Counted from the first letter of the stretch, positions 12,100-64,000 are shown. The stretch: 64,000 nt of DNA from a virus (IMGVR_UViG_3300032323_001205:26919-90918), one strand, 5' to 3'. Numbers and translations: made by a program. Notes: generated by a model from the letters alone, not told the origin.

Positions 12100-12613
12100 C
12101 CCCAATTAGTTTTGTAAGTTTTACCCCACACTTTTCTAAAAAAAGCAGTCCTTCGTCAGTCCTATATACTTTTTTATATACTACTTCACTTACTCCCGCT
12201 TGATATATAGCCTTTGCACAATGTATACATGGGGCGTCAGTTGTAAATAAAGTTGATCCCGCGCTACTCTCAGTGCCCTGTGCTACCTTCATTAGGCAGT
12301 TCATTTCGGCGTGCAGTACCTCGTCCTTAGTCACTAATCGGTATCTGCGATTAGAACCCACTAGTGGATCAAATTCTGTATGCGGGAACTGTTCTACCTT
12401 CTCTGCGTCAGGTAAGAATCCAGCTTTCGCCGCGTTCATATATTCTTTGTACTCGCACTCGTTAGTCCATCCAGTGGGCATACCGTTGTATCCATAGCTA
12501 AGAATGCGATTCTCTTTTACAATAACAGCGCCTACTTGTCTACGAATTGCGCTTGATAGTTTGCTGGTAAGTTCTGCAACTTCCATATAGTAGTCAATAA
12601 ATTTTTGTTTCAT
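12089..12613 (-). CDS. dCMP deaminase (cytidine/deoxycytidylate deaminase zinc-binding family)
   Basis: 174 aa. Zinc-ligand motifs HAEMNCLM and PCIHCAKAI (H-x-E ... PCxxC). Confidence 0.85.
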   Translation of the reverse strand: MKQKFIDYYMEVAELTSKLSSAIRRQVGAVIVKENRILSYGYNGMPTGWTNECEYKEYMNAAKAGFLPDAEKVEQFPHTEFDPLVGSNRRYRLVTKDEVLHAEMNCLMKVAQGTESSAGSTLFTTDAPCIHCAKAIYQAGVSEVVYKKVYRTDEGLLFLEKCGVKLTKLIGDDK

Positions 12614-23022: not shown

Positions 23023-23613
23023 TTATAGTCGTTTATCAATGATTTTGTCAATCAAGCCATACTCTAGTGCTTGCTGTGCTGACATAAAATTATCACGTTC
23101 CATATCATTGGTTAATTGTTCAAACGTTTTCCCGGCACTATTATGCTTAACATAAATTTCAGTAAGATTCTTTTTCATAGCAAGAATTTCTTCTACTTGA
23201 ATCAACATATCAGTTGCCTGACCTCGGGCACCGCCACTTGGCTGGTGAATCATGTGTCGTGCGTTTGGCAGCATAAAACGTTTACTAGTAGCACCTGCTT
23301 GAGCAAGCAAACTACCCATGCTACAGGCTTGACCCATTACAATTGTATTAATGTCGGGCTTGATAAACTGCATAGTGTCATAGATTGCCATACCAGCAGT
23401 AACACTACCACCGGGGCTATTGATATACATACTGATATCTTTTCCACTGTCCTCACTCTCTAGGAATAGTAGTTGTGCAACAATCAAATTTGCCATTTGG
23501 TCATGTACTTCTCCCTCAAGCAAAATGACCCGGTCACGTAATAACCGACTATAAATATCATAACTCCGTTCACCCTTACTTGTGTGTTCGATGACGATTG
23601 GGACTAGACTCAT
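23023..23613 (-). CDS. clpP: ATP-dependent Clp protease proteolytic subunit ClpP (canonical cellular type)
   Basis: 196 aa. Catalytic-triad context [10 protein letters not shown] (Ser), MIHQPSGG (His), plus the [19 protein letters not shown] box. Confidence 0.9.
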
Positions 23614-25692: not shown

Positions 25693-26396
25693 TGAAAATA
25701 GGGTTTGATGTATTAAGTGATTTAAATCTAACCCCTGATGAAAATTTTAACTGGGAAAACAAAGCAACTAGCTTGTACTGTATAATCGCAGGAAATATCA
25801 GTGATGATTTGCGAACTATACATCAAACGCTTATGCACCTGTCAAGATTTTATCAGGGAATATTTTATATTCCGGGCTCGTTAGAGCTAAAGGATATTGA
25901 TCGTATTCCTGATAGGTTAGATGACCTTCACAAAATTTGTTCTTCGGTGAAGACAGTTGCATTATTACACAATCATGTTGTGGTAGTAGATGGTACTGCA
26001 ATTATGGGTGCCACATGCTGGTACGGTAATACCGCTGAACAAGATGCATTCACTGAATTAAAAAAAGATACTTATAGATATGAAGACATATCCTATATGA
26101 GTATGACTTTAGAAAGATTGCAATTACATTTAGATGTAAAAAAGATTATAATCGTTACTCACGCTGTACCTAGCGAGGAGTTATTTTTTGGAGAACTTCC
26201 AAACAATATTAAAGACCAAATGTCGGCTTCTGGAATATTAACTAGAGACAGTGAGCAGAAAGTGACTCACTGGGTTTACGGAAGCTATAATAAAACAGTT
26301 GATACTACCATAGATAATATCAACTATATTAACAATTCATATTATAAAAGAAAGCCCTATTGGGCTAAACGAATTGATATAGATTTAAGCCTCTGA
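25692..26396 (+). CDS. Degenerate metallophosphoesterase-like protein
   Basis: 234 aa. Ordered MPE-like blocks (FDVLSDLNL, IIAGNISDD, IPGSLE, IIVTHAVP) with non-canonical residues. Confidence 0.4.
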   Translation: MKIGFDVLSDLNLTPDENFNWENKATSLYCIIAGNISDDLRTIHQTLMHLSRFYQGIFYIPGSLELKDIDRIPDRLDDLHKICSSVKTVALLHNHVVVVDGTAIMGATCWYGNTAEQDAFTELKKDTYRYEDISYMSMTLERLQLHLDVKKIIIVTHAVPSEELFFGELPNNIKDQMSASGILTRDSEQKVTHWVYGSYNKTVDTTIDNINYINNSYYKRKPYWAKRIDIDLSL

Positions 26397-26690
26397 TTCT
26401 ACCTTAACCTGCAAAGGATATCCTTGACTACGTGCAGACACAGTTACTTCGATTCCCTTTTGTTCTGCAATCTCATAAGGTAAAACTGCTACTACGGCAC
26501 TACCTTGGTCATGAATATTATGTGTAATATTAGTAGCGGTGTCTTCTGTGTATTGAAAATACTCAATTAAGCTATTTACTACAAATTCCATGCTAGTAAC
26601 GTCATCATTCATATAGATGATTTTAAACATAGGAGGTTCTGCGAGTGCAAGATTTGGTTTGATTTTAATTTTAGTATCAGCTTTAGACAT
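26385..26690 (-). CDS. clpS: Clp protease adaptor ClpS
   Basis: 101 aa. Collinear with E. coli ClpS core (PPMFKIIYMNDDVTSMEFVVNSL...ATNITHNIHDQGSAVVAV versus [24 protein letters not shown]...ATQLMLAVHYQGKAICGV). Confidence 0.85.
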   Translation of the reverse strand: MSKADTKIKIKPNLALAEPPMFKIIYMNDDVTSMEFVVNSLIEYFQYTEDTATNITHNIHDQGSAVVAVLPYEIAEQKGIEVTVSARSQGYPLQVKVESEA

Positions 26691-26752: not shown

Positions 26753-27196
26753 TTACTTAGTGTAAGTAATAGCAATAGTCTTGGGTTTTTGTTCTTCAGG
26801 GACTTTACGCTCTAAAGAAATTGTCAAAATCCCATTCTCAGACTTGGCTCCTGCAACTTCAACATGATCAGCTAGTGTCCATGTGCGTGAGAAACTACGT
26901 GCAGAGATACCACGATGTAGATATTCAACTTGGTTATCTAAATCAACAGATTGTTCGCCCTTAACTGTAAGTTGATTACGCTCAACTTGAATGTTAATTT
27001 CACCATCTTTAAAGCCAGCAACAGCTAACTCAATAGCAAAATTGTCATCACCGTGTTTGACAATGTTGTATGGGGGATAGTTTGTATTAGCTTGGGATGT
27101 TCGTAGTAGTTCGTCAAACATGTTGTCGAAACCTACTGCAAATTTGTGAATAGACGGAATGTCTAAGGAACGAAGGGTTAGTGTGTTGTTTGTCAT
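26753..27196 (-). CDS. Small heat-shock protein (Hsp20/alpha-crystallin)
   Basis: The ATG at 27196 has an AAAGGAGA Shine-Dalgarno (the track start at 27256 is GTG). The alpha-crystallin domain runs from NYPPYNIVKHGDDNFAIELAVAGFKDGEINIQVERNQLTVKG to TISLERK. Confidence 0.85.
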   Translation of the reverse strand: MTNNTLTLRSLDIPSIHKFAVGFDNMFDELLRTSQANTNYPPYNIVKHGDDNFAIELAVAGFKDGEINIQVERNQLTVKGEQSVDLDNQVEYLHRGISARSFSRTWTLADHVEVAGAKSENGILTISLERKVPEEQKPKTIAITYTK

Positions 27197-27303
27197 TTTT
27201 TTTCTCCTTTTAAGCAAGATGACATATTTCAGACCCGACCATCGGCATCTGAACACGTATTTATTACAGTAAAAATACGCAAAAAAATCTATTATTTTGT
27301 AAT

Positions 27304-27522
27304 TTAAAAGTTTTTCTTTGGAAGACTTTGGTCACGCAAATATTTTTGCCATCTACGTTTAGCCTGGCTTTTTGCCACCTTACGCCTTACCGTCGGTTTA
27401 ATAAACTCTTGCCGGTCACGGACTTCCTGAAGCAAGCCTACGTCATTGATTAATTTCTTAAACTTGCGTAGTGCTTTCTCAGTGTTACCGTCTACAACAA
27501 TTATTTTTCTTCCTCGTATCAT
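27304..27522 (-). CDS. rpsU: 30S ribosomal protein S21
   Basis: 72 aa. [32 protein letters not shown] aligns with E. coli S21 [32 protein letters not shown]. Confidence 0.85.
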
Positions 27523-28718
27523 AGTAAAGTTTTGGGCTGTAATATTTGAGCTTGATTAATATTTATCTTTTTGATATTATTTTCTCTATATTTCTTGGTA
27601 TGATACATGTGCGGCATAAGCACTTTCTCAATTTCAGTATGCAATCCTCGTGCTCCAGTCTTTAACTTCATGGTATTTTCAGCTAACTGTTCAATTGCAT
27701 CTTCTGTAAATTCTAAGTCGATTCCATCCAAGCTTAACAAGTATTTGTACTGGTCAATATAATTATTTTTTACTCCAGTCAATACTTCAATCATTTCTTC
27801 TTTAGACAAATTAGAAACACTAACTGTTGTAGTAAAACGACCGATAAACTCAGGAATCATACCAAACTTAGTTAGGTCATCAGGGGTAACATTCGTTAAT
27901 CCTATTTCTTTGCGATTGTCTTTGATTTCAGCGCCAAAACCAATACTAGTACCGTGTTCTCTGTTATTAATTATTTCTTTGAGTCCAACGAATGCGCCGC
28001 CGCCAATAAACAATATGTTTTTTGTGTTTATTTCTAGCATGTCTCCACCGGGATGCTTTCGCCCACCGCTAGCAGGTATACGGCATACAGTTCCTTCAAC
28101 TAGCTTAAGTAGTGCTTGCTGAACGCCCTCACCGGACACATCCCGTGTTATGCTAGCACTCTCACTTTTACGTGCAATCTTGTCAATTTCGTCAACAAAA
28201 ACAATTCCACGTTCTGCTAATTTCGGGTCTCCGCCGGCAGCATTAACTAGCATACTAATCATAGATTCAACATCGTCACCAACATATCCTGCTTCAGTCA
28301 AGCTTGTAGCATCGGCCACTACAAAAGGCACGTTGAGATATTTTGCTACTGTTTTTGCTAATAGTGTTTTACCTGAACCTGTAGGACCAATCAACAACAC
28401 GTTACCTTTAGAGATTTCCAAGTCTTTTGGCGGTTTATTGATACGCTTATAGTGATTAGCAATTGCAACACTTAGCACCATTTTTGCATTGTCTTGGCCT
28501 ATGATATGATTATCTAAATACTCTTTGATAGACTCGGGGTCATATACTATTCCGTCTCCTTTGTTTTCAATTTCAGAAACATCGTCTACAATTAGTTGGT
28601 TACATAATTCTATGCAAGCACTGCATATAGCTACATTCTCACTTACAATTAATTTTTTTACTACGTCTTTGTGGTTACCACAAAAGGAGCAATGATTTAG
28701 TTTTGTATCATTTGACAT
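27519..28718 (-). CDS. clpX: ATP-dependent Clp protease ATP-binding subunit ClpX
   Basis: 399 aa. N-terminal C4 zinc finger ([30 protein letters not shown]), Walker [17 protein letters not shown], Walker [11 protein letters not shown], and a GF loop. Confidence 0.9.
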
Positions 28719-49828: not shown

Positions 49829-50254
49829 TTAACTTACCTCAGTACGACCATCGCCTAAATCTCTAGTCCTAACATTTCGCATGTCGCTACTTACTCTTTT
49901 TTCCGGATCAGCCATTTGTTGTTCAAAGGTTTCTAGAACAGTCGCTCTGCACAAATTAGTCCACCAGCGGTCTACTATATCATTATCTGTATCAGTGTCT
50001 TTCATCTTATACCCTGCACGAATAAGATTCAACACAAACTTATCATTGAAATCAAGTTCTACTGAACCGCTATTGATATCATTAGGGTCTATATCCATTC
50101 TAAGAATGTTCACATAAGGTTCCCCTGCCGCAGTAGCTTTTTCTTTTTCTGTAAGTTCAGGTGCAACTTTCTTTTCTTTAGTCTTGCGCGGTTTCTTTTC
50201 TTTCTGTACTACAGGTTCAGGTTTCTTAAATAAATTCTTTAACTTGTCAAACAT
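49829..50254 (-). CDS. Hypothetical protein with Lys-rich N-terminus
   Basis: 141 aa. Confidence 0.45.
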   Translation of the reverse strand: MFDKLKNLFKKPEPVVQKEKKPRKTKEKKVAPELTEKEKATAAGEPYVNILRMDIDPNDINSGSVELDFNDKFVLNLIRAGYKMKDTDTDNDIVDRWWTNLCRATVLETFEQQMADPEKRVSSDMRNVRTRDLGDGRTEVS

Positions 50255-51270
50255 TTGTATCTTTCGTATAGTTTAAAGCTGGCAAGATTCTTTGCCTTCG
50301 ATTCGCACATCATATCAAAGTTCTCACAGAATGTCAATGCCCAATCGTTTACTGCTTCATTCCAATAGTAATCACTATGTGCCCGAAGCTTCTGTTTACT
50401 GTACCCCGCTTCAATCAAAGTTGCCTGGTCGGGTAATTGATTGCAGTCGTGTCCGGTAAGTACGTCCTCCCGAGAAACACTGTAGTGCATAGCAGGGCGA
50501 ACACCGCGCCAACTATCAATAACCTTTTTAACAAGATCATCATTACAGTCAATATAGGTTCCTTCACGTACCCAATTATGGTGAATGTCCATGACCGTAG
50601 GTACGAGGTCAGATAATGATAAGCAGTCAGTAAGTCCATGTGTATATTCCTCATTCTCTAGTGTTAGTGTGTTTCTGGCTTCGGGGCTGAGTCTTCCGTA
50701 GACTTCTCTGATTCCGTCGGGACCTTTTCGTCCTGAGATGTGGACGTTGGTTTTGAAGTCCTGAAACTGTTTGCCATAACCCATCCATCGAACCATGTCT
50801 GCATGATACTCGAACTCCTCTATACTCTTATTTACTACTTCTTCACGGTCACTCGCTAAAACAACGAATTGGTCAGGGTGAAAACTTAGACGAACATTAT
50901 TGGCCCGTGCAGTTTCACCGATTGGAGCAAACCATCGTTCTAAACTGTTTTGTACATCAGTTGAATGCCAAAAGTCTTTGTACTCATCCATAGTGTAGAA
51001 ACTAAGCATGTCGCTGGTAAGACGAACCATACGCAGTCCTGGCTCTAGTGTAGCAACACGCTTAACTAGAGCATGAGTATTCATAATGTTGCGTTTAGCA
51101 ACATCCATAATCTTTTCTTCTACAACATTACGCTTATTGCGCTTTGCCCAAGCTTGTGTAGTGCCACCGGTATTAAGACCCTCGGCTGAGACAATCTCAC
51201 CTTTTTTGTTGATTTCCACCCATTTACACGCAAAACCGATACGTTTAGTAGTAATGTCAAAAGAGTGCAT
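50239..51270 (-). CDS. UV DNA damage endonuclease (UvdE/UvsE family)
   Basis: 343 aa. Collinear motifs with B. subtilis UvsE: RLSFHPDQFVVLAS versus RTSFHPNQFTLFTS; TLENEE versus TLENDD; VMDIHHNWV versus VFDFHHFYA; AHSDYY versus SHADYV. Confidence 0.75.
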   Translation of the reverse strand: MHSFDITTKRIGFACKWVEINKKGEIVSAEGLNTGGTTQAWAKRNKRNVVEEKIMDVAKRNIMNTHALVKRVATLEPGLRMVRLTSDMLSFYTMDEYKDFWHSTDVQNSLERWFAPIGETARANNVRLSFHPDQFVVLASDREEVVNKSIEEFEYHADMVRWMGYGKQFQDFKTNVHISGRKGPDGIREVYGRLSPEARNTLTLENEEYTHGLTDCLSLSDLVPTVMDIHHNWVREGTYIDCNDDLVKKVIDSWRGVRPAMHYSVSREDVLTGHDCNQLPDQATLIEAGYSKQKLRAHSDYYWNEAVNDWALTFCENFDMMCESKAKNLASFKLYERYKCLTS

Positions 51271-53230: not shown

Positions 53231-53785
53231 ATGCGTGATATCATTCAGTTACTTGAGGATAAGTCAAAGCCTCAAGATATAGAAATCATTCAGCTTAACT
53301 TTGAGCCAAGTGAAGTAAGTCCGGTTATATCAAAAGATACATTGGACTTACACTATGGCAAGTTAGCGCATGGTTATGCTGAACGATATAACAACAAAGA
53401 AGGTGACAGAGAATTTAATTATGCAGGAGCATTCTTACATAACACATTGTTCCCTCAGTTCCGTGAAGTAAGAAACAACAATAAACCAAATGGTCCTATG
53501 ATGGGCTTTATCAACAAACACTATGGATCATACGATAATATGAAGTCAGAGTTTGAAGTTGAAGCAATGAAGATTCAAGGTAGTGGTTGGATATACTTAG
53601 CGACTGATGGTAGGATTAAAACAATACCAAATCATCAAGTACGCAATGACATATTGTTATTAGTTGATTGGTGGGAACATGCTTTTATATTAGACTATGG
53701 TAGTGACAAGAAAAAGTATTTGAAAGAACAGTGGAAGATTATTAATTGGAATGTAATTAATACACGTTGGGGTAAGAGTCTATGA
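53231..53785 (+). CDS. Fe/Mn superoxide dismutase-like protein (N-terminus MRDIIQLLED)
   Basis: 184 aa. SOD-like N-terminal LDLHYGKLAHGY (compare HYGKHH) and C-terminal DWWEHAFILDYG (compare DxWEHAYY). One conserved His of the HH pair is missing. Confidence 0.5.
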   Translation: MRDIIQLLEDKSKPQDIEIIQLNFEPSEVSPVISKDTLDLHYGKLAHGYAERYNNKEGDREFNYAGAFLHNTLFPQFREVRNNNKPNGPMMGFINKHYGSYDNMKSEFEVEAMKIQGSGWIYLATDGRIKTIPNHQVRNDILLLVDWWEHAFILDYGSDKKKYLKEQWKIINWNVINTRWGKSL

Positions 53786-54648
53786 GAGCAAATGAATTTA
53801 TAAACGAAACACAAGAACTTGACGAAATAGAACGCCTGAGTAAAAGCGGCTACGAGGGCGGCAAGTACGCCTTGTATGACAAACAGATTGGTAAGCAACT
53901 AAAGAAACTCCCCGGTGGTAGTGGATTACTTTACTCTACTAGTGAAGGTAGATTCGGTGGCACTGATATCAAACTCTGGGATCCAAACGGTGCAGATTAC
54001 ATTGCTCAAAAAGAAAGAGGTGTTCAACCCAAACCAGTTCGTGGCCGAGGAGAGTCACGCTTCGTGTACGACCGTAGACTTTGGGATTGGCAAAGAGCAC
54101 AACGTGATTTAAATGCTAATTTAAATGCTCCGGGGCAATTGATAGGCAAATTATCAGTTAGTACTGTCTACGGATTCCCGCTTAAAGGTGCAGTACAAGT
54201 TGATACTATCACAGTAGATGAAGACTATCGCGGAGTGGGCCTGGCCAAAGCATTGTATGGAATTGTACTAACTATTATGAAACGTCCATTACTTGCTGGA
54301 AGTAGTCAAACACCAGGTGGTCGCAAGAACTGGGTAAGTCTTGCTGGTATCCCCGGAGTTGAAATGAAGGGCTACATTAGTTTTGATGAAGACGATTTAG
54401 ACACTAAACGCAGTCCATACAGTATGACTACACCAGCAAAGGCTAACAAGAATATTGATACTATCATGGGTGAATTAGGTGGACAACACATTGGTCGTGG
54501 ACGATACGGTGATGAATACTTTGCATTTGATGTTAAACCAAATACAACAGGTACAGAATTAGAAGCATACGTTGATACGAAACTAAGCAAAGTATACGGC
54601 GGATACGATTCATCTTCTGGCTTATATGCGGTGTGGACGGGGCAATAA
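53782..54648 (+). CDS. Predicted internal protein with GNAT-like motif (N-terminus MRANEFINE)
   Basis: 288 aa. VDEDYRGVGLAKALYGIVL fits GNAT motif A (R-x-x-G-x-G/A). Confidence 0.5.
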   Translation: MRANEFINETQELDEIERLSKSGYEGGKYALYDKQIGKQLKKLPGGSGLLYSTSEGRFGGTDIKLWDPNGADYIAQKERGVQPKPVRGRGESRFVYDRRLWDWQRAQRDLNANLNAPGQLIGKLSVSTVYGFPLKGAVQVDTITVDEDYRGVGLAKALYGIVLTIMKRPLLAGSSQTPGGRKNWVSLAGIPGVEMKGYISFDEDDLDTKRSPYSMTTPAKANKNIDTIMGELGGQHIGRGRYGDEYFAFDVKPNTTGTELEAYVDTKLSKVYGGYDSSSGLYAVWTGQ

Positions 54649-55202
54649 TGAGAGTGCATGAGTTTATAACAGAAGTCAAAGTATCTGTTAAGGATCAAAT
54701 CATTAATACTGTCCGCAAGAACGGCGGAAATCCCAATGAATACTTTGTTCGCTTTACTGATATTGACAAATTAGGCTTTAGTGCTAAACAACAATTTGGT
54801 CGTAGTTTAGATGTTGACCACCCAGATTATTATCCAGACTATATTGGTGCGGGTAAAGGTAATCCTGCATTGTGGTTCTATCCATTAAAAACTTATATAA
54901 ATGACAATGACTTATATGCTATAGAAAAACCTTATGTTTGGTTAGTTAAATTAAAACCTAATGCATGGTTACAACAGGTTGACAGAAAAACTAAAACTAA
55001 ACAAGAGGCACCTCAGGGTAAAGAACGTGTGGGTATGATGAAGAATGTTAGTCCTTTTCCGGCTGCAATATTCTTTAAGCCGGGGTTTGATGTGGTGGGT
55101 AAATACTATGACTATGGTAGTCAACATAAACGTCACGGAGAAGTTAAAGGTCCTTCACAAGGTAAGCCAACATTCTTTGACAAAGTTAGAGGTCACGCAT
55201 GA
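54648..55202 (+). CDS. Predicted internal protein (N-terminus MRVHEFITE)
   Basis: Start taken at the ATG overlapping the upstream stop (TAATG). 184 aa from that start. Confidence 0.5.
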   Translation: MRVHEFITEVKVSVKDQIINTVRKNGGNPNEYFVRFTDIDKLGFSAKQQFGRSLDVDHPDYYPDYIGAGKGNPALWFYPLKTYINDNDLYAIEKPYVWLVKLKPNAWLQQVDRKTKTKQEAPQGKERVGMMKNVSPFPAAIFFKPGFDVVGKYYDYGSQHKRHGEVKGPSQGKPTFFDKVRGHA

Positions 55203-57046
55203 GAGCCAATGAATTCGTTACTGAAGTATTTCAACCAGGTAAAACAAACTGGAAGTGGTCTCGCCTAGGCGCTACCATAGCCTCTGCATATTTTAAAGTA
55301 GGTGATAGAGAATATCTTTGGCAAGCATTTACAGGTAGTAATCGTAAGAAGTGGGAAATACAATTTCGTTTAGTAAGAAATCCTGAAGTAGATCCAGATA
55401 ATTTAGACTTGTACGGTAAAACTGGTACGGGCAATTCAGCACAAGTACTAAGCACTGCTGTTGATATCACCCGCGCATTCATCAAAGAATATGGTATTGA
55501 TAGAGTAGAAGAAATTACATTTAACGCAAAAGAAGATAGTCGTATTGGATTGTACGCTAAAATGATTCAACGATTGTTACCTAATTGGGATTTATATCAG
55601 AAATATACTAAAGACAACGGTATGGAATATCATTTAACCGATCGCAGAGCATATGATAAACCTGAAAATAAACTAAGTGAGGAAGCCAAAGCTAGTAAAT
55701 ACAAAGGCTTGGTTATGAAGTATGCTTTCAATCAAAGTGCATTGATACTCAAAGCATTTGAACAAGGTAATCCTATAGCGTATGTTAAGTTTGTCAAAGA
55801 AAACAAAGAACTATACCCTCAGGACCTTTGGGTGAATGATGACTATCGCAATAGAGGTATCGCTAAAGCAATGTACGATTATCTAAAGGGTGAAGGCTAC
55901 ATTATTAACAGAAGCCATGACCAAACTAAAGCTGGTTCAGGCTTCTGGGATAAGCATCGTGGTGAAGATGAGTATGTTTGGGAAGAACAGAAGATTACAC
56001 TTTCAGGTAATCAACCTGCTAAAGCATGGATTGAGAAAGTCTATACTAAGTATCCACATACCATGCAGAACAATCATGTTATGGTTTGGGGTGAAGGCGA
56101 CGAACAACAGTTTGCAGTGTTTGAACTAACTCCAAGTTTCAGTAAGCGTGGTGCTGTAGAAGTTAAATGGTTCCAAGCATATCCATTGCGTCAAGGTGTC
56201 GGCAGTCGTGCTATGAAAGAACTTCAAGCATTGGCTAAAGAAGATGGCATTACACTTACATTGTTCCCGTGGGATAAAGGACAAGTTAGTCAAAGTAAAC
56301 TAACTAAGTTTTATAAGGGGCAAGGGTTCAAACCAACACAAAAGGGTGCTAAGACTATGTTCTGGGATCCTAGTGTGAATGAAGAAATTATTGACGAGAT
56401 GCCTCTACCTGCTGACTGGGATCCTCAACAGATGCGTCAGCAAAGCACTTCATTCAAGTCAAGACTTGCTTATGCTTTAGAAAGAGCAAAGAAGTTGGGC
56501 ACTGGATCTAGTCGTGTCGCTACTACAATTGAATATCAAGGCCGCCCTACAGTATTGAAAATTGCTAAAAATGCTAAAGGTCTAGCACAGAACAGTGTTG
56601 AGGCAGACATACTAAGTGACGGTTACGCTAGTCAAATGGGAATACTAATTCCTATTATTGACTATGATACACAGAATCGTGAACCTAGTTGGGTACATAC
56701 TGAGTTAGCACAGAAAGCAAACGAAAAGCAATTGTGTAGTTTAATGAAGTGCCAGTCACTTAATGATTTAATTAGAGCGGCACAAGCCCAACTCAATGAA
56801 TATGGTACTAGGTCTAGAACTATACTAAATGACATTATTGACAAGAACGAACATTTTGGTGTTAGTGAGCAGGATGCAGATACATTCTTAGAATATGTTA
56901 ACAGACTTGCAGAATTAAAAAGTTCATTTGACGTAGAATTGGCCGATTTTCATAGACCAGCCAATTGGGGATTATATCAAGGCAAACCAGTCATCATTGA
57001 TGTTGGATTTAATAGCAATGTATTAAATCAGTACTATAGTCGTTAA
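55199..57046 (+). CDS. Predicted internal protein with two GNAT-like acetyltransferase motifs (N-terminus MRANEFVTE)
   Basis: 615 aa. DDYRNRGIAKAMYDYL and LRQGVGSRAMKEL both match GNAT motif A. Confidence 0.5.
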   Translation: MRANEFVTEVFQPGKTNWKWSRLGATIASAYFKVGDREYLWQAFTGSNRKKWEIQFRLVRNPEVDPDNLDLYGKTGTGNSAQVLSTAVDITRAFIKEYGIDRVEEITFNAKEDSRIGLYAKMIQRLLPNWDLYQKYTKDNGMEYHLTDRRAYDKPENKLSEEAKASKYKGLVMKYAFNQSALILKAFEQGNPIAYVKFVKENKELYPQDLWVNDDYRNRGIAKAMYDYLKGEGYIINRSHDQTKAGSGFWDKHRGEDEYVWEEQKITLSGNQPAKAWIEKVYTKYPHTMQNNHVMVWGEGDEQQFAVFELTPSFSKRGAVEVKWFQAYPLRQGVGSRAMKELQALAKEDGITLTLFPWDKGQVSQSKLTKFYKGQGFKPTQKGAKTMFWDPSVNEEIIDEMPLPADWDPQQMRQQSTSFKSRLAYALERAKKLGTGSSRVATTIEYQGRPTVLKIAKNAKGLAQNSVEADILSDGYASQMGILIPIIDYDTQNREPSWVHTELAQKANEKQLCSLMKCQSLNDLIRAAQAQLNEYGTRSRTILNDIIDKNEHFGVSEQDADTFLEYVNRLAELKSSFDVELADFHRPANWGLYQGKPVIIDVGFNSNVLNQYYSR

Positions 57047-57879
57047 ACTTTCAGTAAATCTTCTATTGTATATAGATTACGCATATAAGGTGACACATCT
57101 TCTAATACACTGCTAGCAAGGTCACCCTTTCTTCTTGGACCGTATTTTACTTCAAAGTCAGTATCATTGACTTGCTGAAATAAACTTATAATCTCGTTAA
57201 CTGTATACCCTACACCATGTCCTAATGATTCAATACTATTACTTGGCTTCTCGATAGCTTGCATTAATGCATCACATATTTCATTTACATGCACATAATC
57301 ACGCACACATGTACCGTCAGGTGATACATCATAGTCATCACCGAATACAGTGAACTCACCTGTCTCACGTGCTTTCATTAAATTGTACATTAATCCATCG
57401 GGGTTAGTGGGAGCTACGACGGTGCTTCCAATAACGTTATAAAATCTAAAGATTGTATATGGTGTTTCTCGATGGTTTGTACAAAATTCTTTTACTACAT
57501 CTTCTGCTGCACGTTTACTAATACCATATGCACTTTCACAATCTTGTGCAGCTCCTGTACTAGCAAAGATAAAGTTTTTAGTTTTAATCTTGTTTATAAC
57601 ATTCATTGTGCCATTCAAATTAGTTATGTAATAACTGATTGGTTTTTGTTCGCTTTCACCTACACGAACTAATGCAGCTAGATGAATTACAGCATCAAAT
57701 TCAATGTCACCAGGAACTAAGAATGGTTTTCTAATATCACATCTATAGAATTCGTTTAACGGTACATGTGGATCGACCATATCTAGTCCATGAACCTCGT
57801 ATTGTTCACCTAGCATTTCACATAGGTGTGATCCTATGTACCCTGAGCTACCTGTAATTAATATTTTTTTCTTTACCAT
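57043..57879 (-). CDS. NAD-dependent epimerase/dehydratase (SDR, short form)
   Basis: 278 aa. N-terminal Rossmann ILITGSSGYIGSHL, plus a YxxxK-like region. Confidence 0.7.
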   Translation of the reverse strand: MVKKKILITGSSGYIGSHLCEMLGEQYEVHGLDMVDPHVPLNEFYRCDIRKPFLVPGDIEFDAVIHLAALVRVGESEQKPISYYITNLNGTMNVINKIKTKNFIFASTGAAQDCESAYGISKRAAEDVVKEFCTNHRETPYTIFRFYNVIGSTVVAPTNPDGLMYNLMKARETGEFTVFGDDYDVSPDGTCVRDYVHVNEICDALMQAIEKPSNSIESLGHGVGYTVNEIISLFQQVNDTDFEVKYGPRRKGDLASSVLEDVSPYMRNLYTIEDLLKV

Positions 57880-59201
57880 GAGAATAAACTTTCTTCTTGA
57901 TCTTTGGGTTCATATGAAGGATCCTTTGTCAAATAAGTATCTTCATCAGTATAAATGACCCTAAATTTATGTTTGTTTGTTAGTACACTACGAATGTCAT
58001 CAATACAGATAATCTTTCTACCCAATGCAGTAATATAATCCCTTAGCTTTACTGTAGTTTCGTTGCAAATCTTTGCTGTGTTACTGTTTGAATTTCTAGG
58101 TACAAAGTTTTGGAAGCAATCATTCCATTTATGAAACACTTGCTTTTCCATAAAATTAAAATGTTTCAATGCTCCCAAGTTGTAATAAGTTTCTGCTTTT
58201 TCAAAACTATCATACAATTCTTTTGCTCGTTCAGCCATAGTTTTCTTGTTGCAAGTATAGAAGAAATCTTCATTGAAGTTCTTTGTCCAGCGTTGATTCT
58301 CTAATACAAGTGTTGGTAATTGAATATGTTGCTCGTAGAATGCCATACCATATGATTCTACTACACTAGGGTTGAATGCGATTCTACTAGACTTAATAAA
58401 GTCTACTTTCTCTTGTCCAACTATACTAGCACGAACATCATATTTGACACTTAGTTTGGATAGTCTATCTTCAAACTTCTTAACACCGTTGGGACTAGTC
58501 ATTACTTTAGCAGGTAGACCTGTCTGCTCAATCAAGTTAATAAACAATTCAGGATTTTTACCTTCTTCCCAACGACCAACAAACAATACACCTTCACGGT
58601 CACCGTTGTATTCAGTTAACAACTCTTGTTCAGTGATAGGAATAGGTAAGTGATATGAAGATTCATCTAAGTGTAGTTGATTGAATTTACTTTGCGTTCC
58701 TATATCAATGTTCGTTGTGCTTAATTGTTGACGCATCATCACATTGGTATTGAACAAGAAGGGATTCTTAGTGTCTTTGAATATCTGACTTTCTAAATGA
58801 GTATAGGCAATGATTTGAATTACATCTTCTAATCCCATTGTACTAGCTACTTGCACTGTTTCATACGTGTTGCAAACGAATGCATCATATAGGTTGTGTT
58901 CTAGTGCTTCTACAATAGCATTACGGAAGTTAGCCATACGCTCATAGCAGAATGTATCGCCATACATAAAGATATTTGAATGATCGGTATACTTGAGTGG
59001 TTCAAGTGGTGCAATTACATTTGCTTTTAATGACTTGACAAACTCGGTGTCTTGTGGTTCTTTATCAGTAATAATATCAACTTTGATATTGTGACTATCC
59101 ATTAACTCACAGAAGCTTTTAGCAAATTGCCCTATACCACCGTGTGGTATTAATGTTTGATAGCTTACCAAAAAGCCAATTCGTTTATCGTATACTCTCA
59201 T
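57873..59201 (-). CDS. Glycosyltransferase family 4 (GT-B)
   Basis: 442 aa. N-terminal HGGIGQF glycine loop and a C-terminal EX7E motif (VVESYGMAFYEQ). Confidence 0.55.
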   Translation of the reverse strand: MRVYDKRIGFLVSYQTLIPHGGIGQFAKSFCELMDSHNIKVDIITDKEPQDTEFVKSLKANVIAPLEPLKYTDHSNIFMYGDTFCYERMANFRNAIVEALEHNLYDAFVCNTYETVQVASTMGLEDVIQIIAYTHLESQIFKDTKNPFLFNTNVMMRQQLSTTNIDIGTQSKFNQLHLDESSYHLPIPITEQELLTEYNGDREGVLFVGRWEEGKNPELFINLIEQTGLPAKVMTSPNGVKKFEDRLSKLSVKYDVRASIVGQEKVDFIKSSRIAFNPSVVESYGMAFYEQHIQLPTLVLENQRWTKNFNEDFFYTCNKKTMAERAKELYDSFEKAETYYNLGALKHFNFMEKQVFHKWNDCFQNFVPRNSNSNTAKICNETTVKLRDYITALGRKIICIDDIRSVLTNKHKFRVIYTDEDTYLTKDPSYEPKDQEESLFSW

Positions 59202-59440
59202 GTGATATCAAAGTGAGTTTTTAATGTCTCTATACTTTTTTCAATAGTGCATTCCACAATTTTTTCTTGAAATGTAGTAAACGCACAGTGCTTGGGTGTA
59301 TTTTTTACTACCTCAATTACTTCTATCAATAACAGGTCTGCAAACTTTTGCAATAAATCACCGCCTACTTCAGGGTAATGACTGCCTCCTGCTTGAAGTG
59401 CAATTTCTTTAATCTTTTCCTTCATCTTTTCAAACTCCAT
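59198..59440 (-). CDS. Hypothetical protein
   Basis: 80 aa. Confidence 0.4.
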   Translation of the reverse strand: MEFEKMKEKIKEIALQAGGSHYPEVGGDLLQKFADLLLIEVIEVVKNTPKHCAFTTFQEKIVECTIEKSIETLKTHFDIT

Positions 59441-59664
59441 ATAATATGGGCATTCTTATCGTGCCATCTATGTTCAAATATTGTATCACCGGGACCAGTG
59501 ATTAGTCTAGTCAAGCGGTATCCATACTTTAACCAAATTCTTTTTCCTGATATATAACAAGTCTCAGGGAGCCAAGCAAATTTAAGTTCTGCTCCCAGAG
59601 ACCATCTATAAAATGAATCTTGTACTTGTGTCTGTGGCATCAGAACAAATCTACCTTTTCCCAT
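59422..59664 (-). CDS. Hypothetical protein
   Basis: 80 aa. Overlaps the metK 3' end by 25 nt. Confidence 0.35.
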   Translation of the reverse strand: MGKGRFVLMPQTQVQDSFYRWSLGAELKFAWLPETCYISGKRIWLKYGYRLTRLITGPGDTIFEHRWHDKNAHIIWSLKR

Positions 59665-60740
59665 GGCATGCCAGTCTTACCAAAATGACCATAATTAGTA
59701 GTTGCACTATAAATAGGTCTAAACAAATCAAATCTATCAATGATACCTTTGGGTGTCAAGTCAACATTGTTCTGAATCCATTTAGTTAACTCACGACTTT
59801 GTGGTCTGTGATCGGTTTCAACATAAAAACTCATTGGTTGTTCTAATCCAATAGCATAGCTAATCTGTACAGTGGCCCAATCTGCCCTACCACTTGCCAC
59901 AATATTCTTAGCCAAGTAGCGTGTCATATAAGCTGCTGATCGATCTACTTTAGTAGGATCTTTTCCACTGAAAGCACCGCCACCATGAGGACTATAACCA
60001 CCGTAGGTGTCCACAATAATTTTTCTTCCAGTGAGCCCAGTGTCGCCATCAGGACCACCAATAACGAAACGCCCAGTAGGATTAATATAAAATTCAGTAT
60101 CATTGTCTATAAATTTTGTTGGTAGTATTCCTCGAATTACTTCTTCTACGGCTCTACGTAGTGTTTCAATATTAATATCTTCAGCGTGTTGAGTAGAGCA
60201 CACAACTTTGGCAATACGTTTGGGAAAATTATTGTCATTGTATTCAAATGTTACTTGGCTCTTTGCATCAGGACCTAGCCATTCTACCGTTTTTGATTTA
60301 CGAACTTTGGTCAATTCTTCTACAATTCGATGACTCCAGTAAATTGCACTTGGCATATGTACATCTGTTTCATTACATGCGTAACCAAACATCAACCCCT
60401 GATCACCTGCACCAAATGTATCTGTTCCTAATGCAATATCTACACTCTGATTGTGCAACAGATTAGTAATCTCCGCTGTTCTCCAATCAAAACCTTTTTG
60501 TTCATACCCGACATTCTTGATAACTCGGCGTACAGCACTCTCAACATCCTCATCGTGTAATACACCTTTGTATTCACCTGCTACGATAACACGGTTAGTG
60601 GTAACCAGTGTTTCACATGCGCAACGTAACGATGAATTTTGTTGCGCCATAACTAAGTCCAATACTGAATCACTAATAGCATCTGCTATTTTATCAGGAT
60701 GACCTTCTGAAACACTCTCGCTTGTAAATAAATAACTCAT
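59640..60740 (-). CDS. metK: S-adenosylmethionine synthetase
   Basis: 366 aa. Near-collinear with E. coli MetK: FTSESVSEGHPDKIAD, GAGDQGLMFGYA, INPTGRFVIGGP, GLTGRKIIVDTYGG, HGGGAFSGKDPTKVDRSAAY. Confidence 0.95.
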   Translation of the reverse strand: MSYLFTSESVSEGHPDKIADAISDSVLDLVMAQQNSSLRCACETLVTTNRVIVAGEYKGVLHDEDVESAVRRVIKNVGYEQKGFDWRTAEITNLLHNQSVDIALGTDTFGAGDQGLMFGYACNETDVHMPSAIYWSHRIVEELTKVRKSKTVEWLGPDAKSQVTFEYNDNNFPKRIAKVVCSTQHAEDINIETLRRAVEEVIRGILPTKFIDNDTEFYINPTGRFVIGGPDGDTGLTGRKIIVDTYGGYSPHGGGAFSGKDPTKVDRSAAYMTRYLAKNIVASGRADWATVQISYAIGLEQPMSFYVETDHRPQSRELTKWIQNNVDLTPKGIIDRFDLFRPIYSATTNYGHFGKTGMPWEKVDLF

Positions 60741-60755
60741 TAATTTCCTTTTAAA

Positions 60756-61604
60756 TTAGGTACCCCACTCATTTTTAAAGAGTGGTACTTGTAGCCTATC
60801 GCTATAACGATATCCACGTTTCATTGATGCCATTGCAACATTTCTAGCATTCATACTATAAACACTTTCAACGCCACCGCATGGCATTAAGTACACAGGA
60901 CCTCTAAAGCCACCGGCCCGATATTCTTTAACTGCTTGGTCTGCTTCTAATACATCTTCTTCTGTAGCAACAACAAACTTAAGATATGCAAAGCCAACAC
61001 TTTCATATTGACGAATAATATCTGGTCTAATTGCGTCTTCCCAATCTTCACCACTAATACTAAGTTTAGGACTTACACTAAAGGTTAATGCGTTCTTTTC
61101 TCGGTGCATTTTCCATTTAGATAGATAGTCTTTAAACTCCATATTCAATTCTTGTGTACCATTAGTTTCAAAAGTAATTTCTTTTAATGAACTCATTTTA
61201 GAGTTTGAAAGTAAATCAGGATACGCTCTTTGCCATCCAAGTAGAGGTTCACCACCTGTGATAACCAAGTGCTCATCTACCCAACGATTGTGAGGAAGTA
61301 TATCCATAATACTGTCAACAATAGAATCGGTGGTGATAACAGGACTAAGATGTTTGAAACGAGGGTCCCAAGATGCATAACTATCACAACCAGTGGAAAC
61401 TAGTGGTAGTTTCTTGTAATCATCATAGTAATGAACTCTTGCGGCAATGTCTTCTACTTCCTTGCTCAGTTGACCTTTAGGCATGCCGAAACCCGCACAT
61501 GTAAAGTTACAACCAAATGTTCTAAGAAAGACTGAGGGTACACCCATGTATCTACCCTCACCTTGAATACTGTAGAATAATTCTGAAATTTTAAGTTGAC
61601 TCAT
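60756..61604 (-). CDS. QueE-like radical SAM enzyme (7-carboxy-7-deazaguanine synthase family) with atypical Cys spacing
   Basis: 282 aa. QueE hallmark N-terminus ELFYSIQGEGRYMGVPSVFLRTFGCNFTC, GGEP box (ITGGEPLLGW). The third cluster Cys is displaced about 38 residues (STGCDSYASWD). Confidence 0.65.
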   Translation of the reverse strand: MSQLKISELFYSIQGEGRYMGVPSVFLRTFGCNFTCAGFGMPKGQLSKEVEDIAARVHYYDDYKKLPLVSTGCDSYASWDPRFKHLSPVITTDSIVDSIMDILPHNRWVDEHLVITGGEPLLGWQRAYPDLLSNSKMSSLKEITFETNGTQELNMEFKDYLSKWKMHREKNALTFSVSPKLSISGEDWEDAIRPDIIRQYESVGFAYLKFVVATEEDVLEADQAVKEYRAGGFRGPVYLMPCGGVESVYSMNARNVAMASMKRGYRYSDRLQVPLFKNEWGT

Positions 61605-62679
61605 AATTTTTTATACTGTGTAAATTTCCCAAGATAATTCTAGGGCTGTTAAAGATTGGATCTTGTAATAAATCCCGCAATTCTTTCTTTTCTGATTCCG
61701 ACATTTCAAAGCCTGTGTGAAATACAAAGTCAGACAAGTGACCCCATTGTACTACTAAATTAAAGTAAATACTAGTCAAATGGCTATACTCAAGTTGCCA
61801 TTTTGCAAAATCTACTATCTCTTTATAGTTGTTGCGCTGTACCGTGAAGTTGGTTTGGAACTGTTTTAAATTTTTAAATGACCCATTCTTTATGATTTCA
61901 TTTAGAGATTCTAAGTTCCTTTTCACTTTATCCAGTGATCCGTTTTTTCGTACAACTGAATAAGTATCGTTGGTTGCAGCATCAATACTGATATTGAGGT
62001 GACTGATGTTATCCCATATATGGGTTATATCATTCAATCGTGCATCTGTCATTAAGATACCGTTAGTTAATAATTTCAATGAAAGATTTTGATTAGGATC
62101 TAAATTCTTAATATAGTTCCAATATATAGGGCTAGCAAACGCATCTCCACTACCTGTTATATTCAAGACCAACTGTTCACCTTTGTCTAGTAAGTACTGG
62201 ACCAACTCTTTAACTTTATTATGTACTCTACTTAACTGCGTGTTCTCATTTAACCCATATAGAATTAATTCATTTCTACAACTGGGGCATTGTAAGTTAC
62301 ACGACTGGTCATAACTGAAGTTTATAACTATAGGCTGACGAATCTTTTCTTGCGGTAATAAGACTAAAGGAACTATATATCCGGGTATACGCTTTCCATT
62401 AAGTATAGTATTGATGAATGGGCAATGATCATTACATTCTGTAAATTTTCCATTGTCCATGTCATTTACTAATGCAACTCTATTAACGTTATGTAAGATT
62501 TCTTCGGGAGTATCGGATAATACGTTCCCGAAGAATTTAGGTAGCCATGAAAAGCAACAAATAGATATGTCACCCGAAGGATGTATCTCAAAATACGTTG
62601 ATATACGATAACATCCGTAGTTTTTTAACTTAGACTCAGGGTATATGTATTGATCCGCGGACTTTATCACATATTGCAT
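61591..62679 (-). CDS. Radical SAM enzyme with N-terminal Cys-rich extension
   Basis: 362 aa. CNLQCPSC (CxxxCxxC) at about residue 127. It is preceded by ICCFSW / ECNDHCPF Cys clusters. Confidence 0.6.
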   Translation of the reverse strand: MQYVIKSADQYIYPESKLKNYGCYRISTYFEIHPSGDISICCFSWLPKFFGNVLSDTPEEILHNVNRVALVNDMDNGKFTECNDHCPFINTILNGKRIPGYIVPLVLLPQEKIRQPIVINFSYDQSCNLQCPSCRNELILYGLNENTQLSRVHNKVKELVQYLLDKGEQLVLNITGSGDAFASPIYWNYIKNLDPNQNLSLKLLTNGILMTDARLNDITHIWDNISHLNISIDAATNDTYSVVRKNGSLDKVKRNLESLNEIIKNGSFKNLKQFQTNFTVQRNNYKEIVDFAKWQLEYSHLTSIYFNLVVQWGHLSDFVFHTGFEMSESEKKELRDLLQDPIFNSPRIILGNLHSIKNYEST

Positions 62680-62693
62680 TAGTATGTCCTAGA

Positions 62694-63863
62694 TCAAATC
62701 ATTTCTGAAAGTTGTTTTGCCGTGTATGGTGCTAATGTCCAGCCTAAATGACCGTGTCCTGTATTATAATATACTTTACTATTTTTGTCACTCTGTTTGG
62801 TAATAGGCATCATATTAGGAGTCATTGGTCTGAGACATGCCCAACTACTATAATCATGTGTATTAATATCAGGAAAGTTAGTGTGAACCCATTTTAAAAG
62901 AGGTTTAATTCTATCTGATACTATGTCATAGTTTTCACCATTTAATTCAGCGGTCCCTGCAACACGAAATCTATTGCCTAAAGTTGATGTGACTATCTTA
63001 GCTTGGTCGTCTAGTAAACTTACTTTAGGTAAGTATTTAGGGTCAACGTTATTAATCGTAATAGAATATCCCTTTACCGGGTAAATATTCAAACTATCAC
63101 CGACACCGTTAGCTAGTTTCTCAGAACCCACACCAGCTGAAATGATCACCGCATCATAAGTGTTAGATAGATAATCTATTAATGATACGTCACAATTGTA
63201 GCAAAAAACAACGTTGTATTTCTTTTTTAAAATTTCAGCCAGTTCATAACAGAATTTGTGAATATCACCCACCCAATCACCAGGAGTCCAAGCACCTCCC
63301 ACTATACCTTTTATACTGCCTAATGCAGGATCCATGCTGAGAGTCTTCGTCGGAGATAGCAAATCCCATTCACAACCATTGGCATTATACAGGCCTTTTA
63401 CTTCAACTGCATTTTGAAAATAATTATCATCTTTATAAAAGTGTAAGATACCAGAATCGCTTCTGTCAAATTTAATGTTTTCTTCTTGACATATTTCATC
63501 GTACAACTTACGAGATTCCACACCCATTTGAATAGTGTTCGCGGTATTTCTACCATAATCACCCATAAGAGTGTGATATAAAAACTTTGCCATCCACTTG
63601 AACAATTTATAATCTAAACGTGGTCGGATTAATAACGGGGCATCTTTAGTGAACATCCACTTAATACCCTTTTCAACATTACTCCAAGTAGTCCATACTT
63701 CACTGTTACTGACACTGATCTGACCGCCATTAGCAAAACTGGTTCTCATAGCAGGATAGCGTTCCTGCTCATAAACAGTTACTTGATAACCCTTTTTAGC
63801 AAGGTAATATGCTGTCGTAATGCCTGTAATGCCGGCGCCAATCACTGCTATGTTTTTATTCAT
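62694..63863 (-). CDS. FAD-dependent oxidoreductase (DAO/glycine-oxidase-like)
   Basis: 389 aa. N-terminal dinucleotide fold KNIAVIGAGITGITTAYYLAKKGYQVTVYEQE. The reading frame stays open upstream to the window end, so a longer start cannot be excluded. Confidence 0.7.
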   Translation of the reverse strand: MNKNIAVIGAGITGITTAYYLAKKGYQVTVYEQERYPAMRTSFANGGQISVSNSEVWTTWSNVEKGIKWMFTKDAPLLIRPRLDYKLFKWMAKFLYHTLMGDYGRNTANTIQMGVESRKLYDEICQEENIKFDRSDSGILHFYKDDNYFQNAVEVKGLYNANGCEWDLLSPTKTLSMDPALGSIKGIVGGAWTPGDWVGDIHKFCYELAEILKKKYNVVFCYNCDVSLIDYLSNTYDAVIISAGVGSEKLANGVGDSLNIYPVKGYSITINNVDPKYLPKVSLLDDQAKIVTSTLGNRFRVAGTAELNGENYDIVSDRIKPLLKWVHTNFPDINTHDYSSWACLRPMTPNMMPITKQSDKNSKVYYNTGHGHLGWTLAPYTAKQLSEMI

Positions 63864-64000
63864 TCATTCTCCATTTATTTTCTGGCAATCCATAGTCCCA
63901 TTTTGGATCCATCTCAACGTTCCATCTGGTAGTAGCAACGTGGAAGTCTGGTATCTTCATTTCTTTAGGATTGCTTGCTGGTTCTAAAATAACAATTCGG

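Follow-up and report, generated by a model that had tools for sequence, protein, structure and literature searches.

7-Deazaguanine DNA modification is a major route by which phages get past restriction enzymes and CRISPR, and to our knowledge the chemistry described so far ends at small substituents at C7. Here we analyze a 64,000-nucleotide stretch of viral DNA (IMGVR_UViG_3300032323_001205:26919-90918, hereafter the window) that ends in a run of minus-strand genes for two radical S-adenosylmethionine (SAM) enzymes, a glycosyltransferase (GT), a nucleotide-sugar enzyme, and a SAM synthetase. This run is the 3' half of a gene island in a jumbo phage of ~348 kb; the island spans ~17 kb of one strand, with its genes closely packed. 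We put at roughly 0.7 the probability that the phage uses the island to exchange guanine in its DNA for a 7-deazaguanine-type base that is decorated further by sugar and radical SAM genes; the likely role of the island is to protect the phage DNA from restriction and other DNA-targeting defenses.

Sugars on phage DNA are familiar from the T-even phages, in which alpha- and beta-glucosyltransferases glucosylate hydroxymethylcytosine, evading restriction. These phages offer a possible working analogy in that GT-B enzymes add a sugar to an already modified base. There, however, the base is a pyrimidine with a hydroxymethyl acceptor, the GTs belong to other families, and the donor is host UDP-glucose, whereas the island would combine a purine analogue with GT4-like enzymes and phage-encoded sugar-activation genes. 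We know of no glycosylated purine analogue in any genome; a sugar-decorated 7-deazaguanine would be the first described. Our literature searches returned no paper on glycosylated 7-deazaguanine in phage DNA, and a 2026 review mentions deazaguanine incorporation in jumbo phages only as "predicted."

The bacterial Dpd and phage DpdA1/DpdA2 systems, which install dPreQ0, dADG, dG+, and dPreQ1, share with the proposed pathway a post-replicative exchange of G by an enzyme of tRNA-guanine transglycosylase (TGT) fold. They use QueC (plus QueF, ArcS, or Gat-QueC) for preQ0-derived bases, whereas here we see DpdL and have no QueC in view. DpdL was defined as a QueD paralog in which the CxxxHGH motif is altered to LxxxHRHxF; it occurs in phages having DpdA, FolE, QueD, and QueE without QueC, and was proposed as a 7-carboxy-7-deazaguanine (CDG) decarboxylase yielding 7-deazaguanine (Cui et al. 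2023, PMC10516641). In the same study, 2'-deoxy-7-deazaguanosine (dDG) was measured in the Cellulophaga phages phiST, phi13:1, and phi19:2 (PMC10516641). The phiST system resembles ours in having FolE, QueD or a QueD-like protein, QueE, a DpdL with the LxxxHRHxF motif (CGPG_00067; 34% identical to ours, E = 4e-8), a TGT-fold transglycosylase, and no QueC in view, and in its location beside replication genes. It differs in being without a GT-B enzyme, a second radical SAM enzyme, an SDR, or a nucleotidyltransferase, and its DpdA3, at 259 residues, is without the DSG motif and has no BLAST similarity to the 512-530-residue protein found here.

Jumbo phage PA5oct (Wroclawvirus) carries, likewise downstream of DNA polymerase, a module of a DpdA-like protein, a GT-B, a DpdL-like protein, a phosphoribosyltransferase (PRT)-like protein, and QueE. 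Its DpdA-like family is about 33-35% identical and its DpdL-like protein 62% identical to ours, and the GT-B and QueE families are the same, but the region is without homologs of four proteins of our island (rSAM2, GTl442, SDR278, and NTase155) and its DpdL-like motif is HFH, not HRH. PA5oct DNA is resistant to restriction and suspected to hold a modified G; the phage is nevertheless held back by nucleases that recognize hypermodified DNA, one of them specific for modified-G phages, with the base not identified (PMC12191111). Acidovorax phage ACP17, Xanthomonas phage X1, and Synechococcus phage BUCT-ZZ01 each hold FolE, QueD, QueE, DpdL, DpdA, and a GT-B of our GT-B395 family in one block, to which BUCT-ZZ01 adds a GTl442 homolog. 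Their DpdA belongs to another sequence group (416-437 residues), none has rSAM2, SDR278, or NTase155, and X1 has an extra PP-loop "PAPS reductase family" (3'-phosphoadenosine-5'-phosphosulfate; PAPS) gene that might be QueC-like.

An exact-protein look-up locates the window on a metagenomic scaffold of 348,244 bp, where it spans positions 28193-92192. A second sequence, L003, is identical to the window tail where the two overlap and extends 10 kb past its edge (window position = 73864 - L003 position); the gene scans covered these two, 74 of the 348 kb. The minus-strand array is unbroken from 57043 to the window edge, with genes that overlap or lie at most 15 nt apart, and it continues on the same strand in L003 at spacings of -14 to +129 nt upstream of the DAO gene. 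The first-pass annotation had taken six of these genes for a self-supplied radical-SAM pathway outside the canonical 7-deazaguanine set, with no FolE, QueD, or DpdA in view. Our open reading frame (ORF) listing and profile searches recovered all six on the minus strand (Table 1), together with genes it had not listed, namely two 80-residue ORFs and a ninth gene, of which 63856-64000 falls in the window. The lack of FolE, QueD, and DpdA is true within the window and is an edge artefact: FolE, QueD-like, and DpdA-like genes lie 1.8-9.9 kb beyond position 64000 on the same strand, and with DpdL they stand immediately upstream in the same array. What had appeared as an orphan radical-SAM pathway is instead most probably a DpdA/DpdL-type 7-deazaguanine DNA-modification island, of a known kind with undescribed additions. 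When the region was compared by megablast with 50,697 phage records, our comparison set for cultured phages, no match and hence no close cultured relative emerged, and the database names of the island proteins are merely generic or "hypothetical." A promoter and terminator scan of 56500-64000 returned site counts equal to the shuffled expectation and is uninformative on co-transcription.

FolE scores well over two curated cut-offs (NF006824, 320 bits against 202; TIGR00063, 243 bits against 182). The QueD-like protein matches PF01242 at 49 bits (cut-off 22.4) and phrog_2389 (E = 1.9e-32), with 37 bits for TIGR03367, under the cut-off of 89. The first-pass assignment of 60756-61604 to the QueE family holds: the protein matches phrog_2076 (E = 4.8e-53), and its PDB matches are solely QueE structures (6nhl, 4njg, 5tgs). 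Aligned with QueE of BUCT-ZZ01, KVP40, PA5oct, X1, and 2.275.O, it shares with all of them the invariants E8, F10, G15-E16 of "QGEG," R28, C32-x3-C36, G-C73-D-S, and TGGE(P/S). An insert of about 36 residues after C32-x3-C36 is also common to the aligned phage proteins, so the odd cysteine spacing is a phage-family trait.

The 151-residue protein reads LGTPHRHIF, an instance of the published LxxxHRHxF motif, and is 54% identical to ACP17 DpdL. Its tblastn matches in Cellulophaga phages phiST, phi13:1, and phi19:2 fall precisely at the DpdL position beside MazG. We assign it as the predicted DpdL of this phage. Searches of the window, L003, and all sister loci for QueC, QueF, and Gat proteins found no homolog, and scanning the entire window with Pfam likewise revealed neither QueC nor a second TGT or a hydroxymethylase. 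In Vibrio phage Bakedbeans, the DpdL-like domain makes up only the C-terminal third of a 383-residue protein (gp176, L025:8221-9372) and is thus fused to an N-terminal domain of about 260 residues.

The 530-residue protein at the head of the island is a DpdA-like transglycosylase, a predicted TGT-fold DNA-guanine transglycosylase. Its family is strongly conserved and counts at least 6,801 database proteins, in which the GDSGGFQ motif is invariant; the motif is present in the copy described here, and DSGG(F/L)Q stands at a similar position in DpdA of ACP17, X1, and BUCT-ZZ01. We take DSGGFQ to resemble the catalytic-Asp motif of tRNA-guanine transglycosylases. The best structural match of the predicted model is Salmonella DpdA (7ui4). 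The protein has no Pfam, PHROG, or PDB sequence match, and neither does our positive control, the annotated DpdA of Xanthomonas phage X1. In Vibrio phage 2.275.O, the genes that come after the DpdA-like homologs are QueF, YhhQ, QueC, an amidotransferase, and FolE, and in PA5oct the homolog lies directly upstream of QueE. The 469-kb Sinorhizobium phage Phosso (L022 and PV764938.1:323249-324772) has its DpdA-like gene ~170 kb from a DpdL/GT-B/FolE/QueE block, which indicates that the island can be split.

A GT-B enzyme, GT-B395, is a recurrent partner of DpdL/DpdA in six phage lineages, one that is undescribed and goes unmentioned by Cui et al. (PMC10516641). Its homolog is sandwiched by DpdA and DpdL in ACP17, adjoins DpdA in X1, lies between the DpdA-like protein and DpdL in PA5oct, adjoins DpdL in Phosso, and stands beside DpdL in BUCT-ZZ01, where it is 62.5% identical; in the present lineage at most two genes separate it from DpdL. 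These genomes differ otherwise in gene order. Adjacency holds in six of the ten independent DpdL lineages inspected. By tblastn, all five cultured-phage matches fall in DpdL phages, and a DpdL match occurs in only 28 of the 50,697 records; among cultured phages, then, the family is found in DpdL phages only. Although GT-B395 itself reaches just 22.3 bits for PF00534 (Glycos_transf_1; cut-off 26.4), the X1 homolog passes at 45.5 bits, and the family profile retrieves only GT4-type enzymes from the PDB (PglH/WlaC, E = 1.6e-4).

To place the island among its relatives, we compared it with eight further loci from IMG/VR, ENA, and JGI metagenomes, whose rSAM2 proteins are 86% to 49% identical to ours. 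The kept order is DpdA-like, small ORF, DpdL, small ORF, (nucleotidyltransferase-cupin fusion), GT-B395, (Hc1), FolE, NTase155, (kinase-nucleotidyltransferase), QueD, rSAM2, QueE, (MetK), s80a, GTl442, SDR278, where brackets mark genes that are patchy among loci. FolE is kept in all sister loci. The two radical SAM genes adjoin or almost do so in all eight, a finding at odds with the idea that they come from unrelated housekeeping families acquired separately, and rSAM2 sits between QueD and QueE wherever both flanks are visible. SDR278 (70-77% identical) and s80a (41-66%) hold the same position in L006, L007, L009, L011, and L012; s80b has no detectable counterpart in the sister loci. Conservation of SDR278 and NTase155 is limited to this lineage.

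The second radical SAM enzyme, rSAM2, is a probable N-terminal-twitch radical SAM protein of an uncharacterized family and a lineage-specific addition between QueD and QueE. It scores over the cut-offs of PF04055 (34.4 bits) and PF13186 (25.6 bits, residues 23-87), carries a CX3CX2C motif (C127x3C131x2C134) plus five invariant N-terminal cysteines, and aligns weakly with the twitch domain of BtrN. The first-pass annotation had offered viperin-like, NrdG-activase, and QueE clades as its possible home. None fits: no score exceeds a family cut-off, and no structural match is clearly best among neighbors that include viperin, BlsE, DesII, and MoaA. The family has more than 500 metagenomic homologs, and tblastn against the phage records found no cultured-phage homolog. 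Relatives at 49% identity or above always lie between QueD and QueE.

Two further genes point to sugar chemistry. SDR278 is predicted to be an extended-SDR sugar-nucleotide enzyme from its matches to PF01370 (E = 1.8e-33) and the nucleotide-sugar epimerase family phrog_540 (E = 1.7e-41) and from its GxxGxxG and YxxxK motifs; a narrower identity as UDP-glucose 4-epimerase GalE was rejected, since the equivalog score and length fall short. For GTl442, a GT4-type assignment finds support at the family level: there are 1574 homologs, which JGI names "glycosyltransferase involved in cell wall biosynthesis," and although the PDB matches of the family profile are weak (E >= 0.014), they are led by TreT (E = 0.014) and WlaC, both GT4-type, with an unrelated phosphodiesterase also matched at E 0.3-0.4. 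In BUCT-ZZ01, a homolog with 38% identity is placed between FolE and DpdA; it scores 24.6 bits (E = 3.4e-5) for Glyco_trans_1_4 against a cut-off of 27. A 29% homolog in X1 sits away from the deazaguanine cluster, beside NAD-salvage genes.

Taken together, these features suggest the following pathway. By homology, fold, or motif, GTP would be converted by FolE, the QueD-like T-fold enzyme, and phage-type QueE to CDG; DpdL, the published candidate decarboxylase, would carry CDG toward 7-deazaguanine, with no QueC seen; and the DpdA-like transglycosylase would, post-replicatively, insert the base into DNA in place of G. The later steps draw on conserved co-location: the two GT4-like GTs, the cytidylyl/adenylyl-transferase-like NTase155, and SDR278 may make and transfer an activated sugar, and rSAM2 may act on either the sugar or the base; the resulting DNA base would be more elaborate than plain dDG and most likely sugar-bearing. 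MetK, where present, is likely an optional supply of extra SAM for both radical SAM enzymes. The first-pass annotation had named DNA base hypermodification among the candidate products and suspected a sugar, and our results support it on both counts.

Several observations weigh against this reading. The DpdA-like model is of moderate confidence only (predicted local distance difference test, pLDDT, 63.6), and neither hhalign against the X1/ZZ01 pair nor phmmer against the PDB found anything. QueE scores under every curated NCBIfam QueE cut-off. The QueD-like motif is CSLLHGY (CxxxHGY), where solved QueD has CxxxHGH: the catalytic Cys and first His are kept, as are a DH pair and a Glu, but the last His is Tyr, so that one zinc-binding His is replaced. 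The same CxxxHGY occurs in QueD of the cultured cyanophage BUCT-ZZ01 (L001:11652-12119). GTl442 falls under the PF00534 cut-off (E = 0.0039; 17.2 bits against 26.4); SDR278 reaches 160 bits for TIGR01179 GalE against a cut-off of 262 and has 278 residues against about 330; and the nearest NCBIfam model to rSAM2, NF033640 (N_Twi_rSAM), gives 44.8 bits against 170. QueC or other tailoring genes may also lie elsewhere on the scaffold, outside the 74 kb inspected. The decarboxylase activity of DpdL is only proposed, and DpdL plus DpdA of phiST or ACP17 gave no dDG in Escherichia coli (PMC10516641).

The remaining contrary points are those that favor the main rival, plain dDG DNA as in phiST, in which the GTs, the SDR, the nucleotidyltransferases, and rSAM2 would be functionally unrelated neighbors that serve elsewhere, for instance in glycosylating virion proteins or the host envelope or in maturing a small peptide. 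It is the main rival because 7-deazaguanine offers no obvious hydroxyl or amine at C7 to accept a sugar, because DpdL activity is only proposed, and because phiST makes dDG without any GT, reaching full replacement with only FolE, QueD, QueE, DpdL, and DpdA3 (PMC10516641). Four of the ten DpdL lineages (the phiST group, RHph_I1_18, Ahp1, and Bakedbeans) have no GT-B395 within ±7-9 kb. Homologs of GTl442 at 23-26% identity occur in Erwinia jumbo phages without a DpdL match, and on account of these and of the X1 copy beside NAD-salvage genes, GTl442 is less firmly tied to the pathway than GT-B395. Distant rSAM2 relatives (41-45%) are found on related jumbo-phage backbones as members of arrays with two to six radical SAM genes (L018:820-11125; L019:8712-14132; L013:8769-11128). 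The arrays resemble multi-radical-SAM loci for ribosomally synthesized and post-translationally modified peptides; no homolog of FolE or QueE occurs within 10 kb of them, and a PTPS gene is near one. The island also tolerates unrelated insertions, namely DAO and the PurM-like gene. Set against all this are the confinement of GT-B395 among cultured phages to those with DpdL, its place next to DpdA/DpdL in genomes of otherwise differing gene order, and the position of rSAM2 between QueD and QueE in all sister loci with both flanks visible. We therefore regard plain dDG with unrelated neighbors as unlikely. As a separate observation on the distant arrays, one includes an Asp/Arg hydroxylase and another a B12-binding radical SAM protein.

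Actinomycete 7-deazapurine glycosides exist, and the genes might instead make a free 7-deazapurine nucleoside, nucleotide, or N-glycoside (toyocamycin- or huimycin-like) or a modified nucleotide-sugar, possibly incorporated at the nucleotide level. Consistent with such a product are the PRT genes near QueE in other loci, the kinase and nucleotidyltransferase genes of the island, and the action of the structural neighbors of rSAM2 on nucleotides or nucleotide-sugars. Yet the DpdA-like base-exchange enzyme is kept at the island head, PRT is absent from the present contig and may merely salvage released guanine, and we recognized no enzymes at the deoxynucleoside triphosphate level specific to a modified base, all of which makes this a very remote prospect. 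We think equally little of a role in queuosine-type tRNA modification or a host 7-deazaguanine pool with unmodified phage DNA, for which FolE, QueD, and QueE as first steps of queuosine synthesis would speak, given that structure comparison points first to DpdA, an enzyme acting on DNA, that DpdL has so far been tied to DNA dDG only (PMC10516641), that Cui et al. saw a DpdA in all phages carrying these genes, that no QueC, QueF, or QueA is in view and hence no route to preQ1 or Q, that tRNA and Rfam scans of the 74 kb found no tRNA gene or preQ1 riboswitch, and that the relative PA5oct has restriction-resistant DNA (PMC12191111).

The genes of the island and its upstream half are collected in Table 1.

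Table 1. Genes of the island, listed from its final gene through the window edge to its head in L003
Feature	Coordinates	Strand	Assignment and remarks
SDR278	57043..57879	-	GalE-like NAD-dependent nucleotide-sugar epimerase/dehydratase, short; final island gene
GTl442	57873..59201	-	GT4-like GT-B glycosyltransferase, 442 aa; second GT of the island
s80b	59198..59440	-	80-aa ORF; no family match
s80a	59422..59664	-	80-aa ORF; no family match
MetK	59640..60740	-	S-adenosylmethionine synthetase; accessory
Phage-type QueE	60756..61604	-	7-carboxy-7-deazaguanine synthase family radical SAM
rSAM2	61591..62679	-	Radical SAM with N-terminal twitch/SPASM-like auxiliary-cluster domain
DAO	62694..63863	-	DadA-like FAD-dependent D-amino-acid dehydrogenase; sporadic auxiliary gene
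210-aa PurM-like gene, 3' end	63856..64000, running on to about 64488	-	Cyanophage/pelagiphage "PurM/ferredoxin" auxiliary gene
Bax1-I		same (L003)	Membrane protein; beyond the 210-aa gene, moving away from the window
Class II aldolase		same (L003)	After Bax1-I
QueD/PTPS-like protein	L003:7491-8018	same	After the aldolase
252-aa protein	within L003:5926-7472 (about window 66392-67938)		Before the kinase-nucleotidyltransferase fusion
Kinase-nucleotidyltransferase fusion	within L003:5926-7472 (about window 66392-67938)		P-loop kinase fused to HxGH nucleotidyltransferase
NTase155			155 aa, RfaE-domain-II/TagD-like nucleotidyltransferase; between the kinase fusion and FolE (L003)
FolE	L003:4121-4807	same	GTP cyclohydrolase I
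Hc1	L003:3616-3810		Histone-like protein; between FolE and GT-B395
GT-B395			395-aa GT-B; between Hc1 and DpdL (L003)
DpdL	L003:1745-2200		151 aa
DpdA-like transglycosylase		same	530 aa; head of the island, beyond DpdL (L003)

The supply genes and the oxidoreductase that the first-pass annotation had counted as members of the pathway fare less well. MetK is a genuine SAM synthetase (TIGR01034, 480 bits against a cut-off of 309, with PF00438, PF02772, and PF02773 all matched), yet it is present in only two of the six sister loci that span its position (L003 and L011). The IscA-like gene at 2840-3172 is real (PF01521, E = 6e-18) and was rejected as a cluster member on its distance of 55 kb; self-supply of SAM and Fe-S is thus no defining trait. 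DAO has a full-length PF01266 domain (E = 5e-60; NF009074, 455.6 bits against a cut-off of 494) and no genuine homolog among cultured phages. It occurs in two of eight loci (L003 and L009), preceding rSAM2 in one of them and following it in the other. Sporadic, variable in position, and co-inserted with unrelated auxiliary genes, it was rejected as a tailoring enzyme of the pathway.

Those co-inserted genes, an aldolase, a Bax1-I/YccA-like gene, and the 210-residue gene, form a block (L003:8020-10008 plus window 63856-64000) between QueD and DAO that is present in this contig only and absent from the sister loci. As these genes and DAO are patchy or contig-specific, we read them as an auxiliary-gene insertion that would be unrelated to the pathway. 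The 210-residue protein matches phrog_3704 (E = 2e-77) and occurs in 114 cultured aquatic phage records with inconsistent annotations (PurM, ferredoxin); it has no Pfam match and no ferredoxin Cys motif. A role as electron donor for the radical SAM enzymes was accordingly discarded, and the "PurM" or "ferredoxin" label of this widespread aquatic-phage gene looks unreliable.

Other insertions vary from locus to locus. The kinase-nucleotidyltransferase fusion, found in L003, L007, and L011 only, joins an adenosine-5'-phosphosulfate (APS)-kinase-like P-loop domain to an HxGH nucleotidyltransferase and adjoins the 252-residue protein, which has an N-terminal "LPRTGSQ" loop and was detected in L003 only; the pair could be a PAPS-making and sulfotransfer branch. 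A small PRT gene lies beside QueE in BUCT-ZZ01 (L001:10861-11322) and PA5oct (L016:12946-13380); in two sister contigs (L008:11088-11582; L010:11091-11567) it separates rSAM2 from QueE. It may salvage guanine set free by base exchange or ribosylate the deazapurine. Sister contig L012 has an IMPDH-family gene and a GIY-YIG endonuclease between GT-B and FolE (L012:5955-7820), which may be a guanine-nucleotide supply gene and a homing element. The histone-like protein is of the chlamydial Hc1 type (PF07432) and is kept in L006, L009, and L011.

Elsewhere in the window, three consecutive plus-strand genes at 53782-57046 face the island. They resemble a small paralogous family, with near-identical N termini (MRANEFINE, (MDGAI)MRVHEFITE, and MRANEFVTE) and, in the last of the three, a GNAT acetyltransferase domain. 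ClpP (23023-23613), ClpS (26385-26690), an Hsp20/IbpA-like protein (26753-27256), and ClpX (27519-28718) make up a near-complete set for proteolysis and chaperone functions. Two large minus-strand ORFs at 5813-9260 (766 and 403 residues) encode, by their translations, low-complexity proteins with a signal peptide, an extreme richness in Asn, Ser, and Thr, and no family match. Host-like genes lie at 10267-11022, 12089-12613, 50239-51270, and 53231-53785; they encode a D-Ala-D-Ala carboxypeptidase (S11), a dCMP deaminase, a UvdE UV endonuclease, and an Fe/Mn superoxide-dismutase-like protein.

The island, like the GT-B that recurs with DpdL/DpdA, points to 7-deazaguanine chemistry extended in an undescribed way, possibly with sugars, and the DpdA-like family emerges as very abundant, though unannotated, in environmental jumbo phages. 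When DpdL and DpdA failed in E. coli, Cui et al. suspected an "unknown enzyme," and the GT-B is a candidate for it. A more specific proposal, which we hold tentatively and with doubt, is that the phage DNA carries sugar-decorated 7-deazaguanine, that the GT-B is the enzyme missing from the failed dDG reconstitutions, and that rSAM2 and a phage-made nucleoside diphosphate-sugar create or tailor the attachment. If true, the same GT-B-dependent chemistry would occur in the cultured phages ACP17, X1, PA5oct, Phosso, and BUCT-ZZ01, and GT-B-linked chemistry may explain the modified G of the therapeutic jumbo phage PA5oct. Since several cultured phages carry the GT-B module, the idea of a sugar extension is testable now, and new DNA bases, with the enzymes that install them, would be useful for nuclease-resistant DNA and for understanding modification-sensing defenses.

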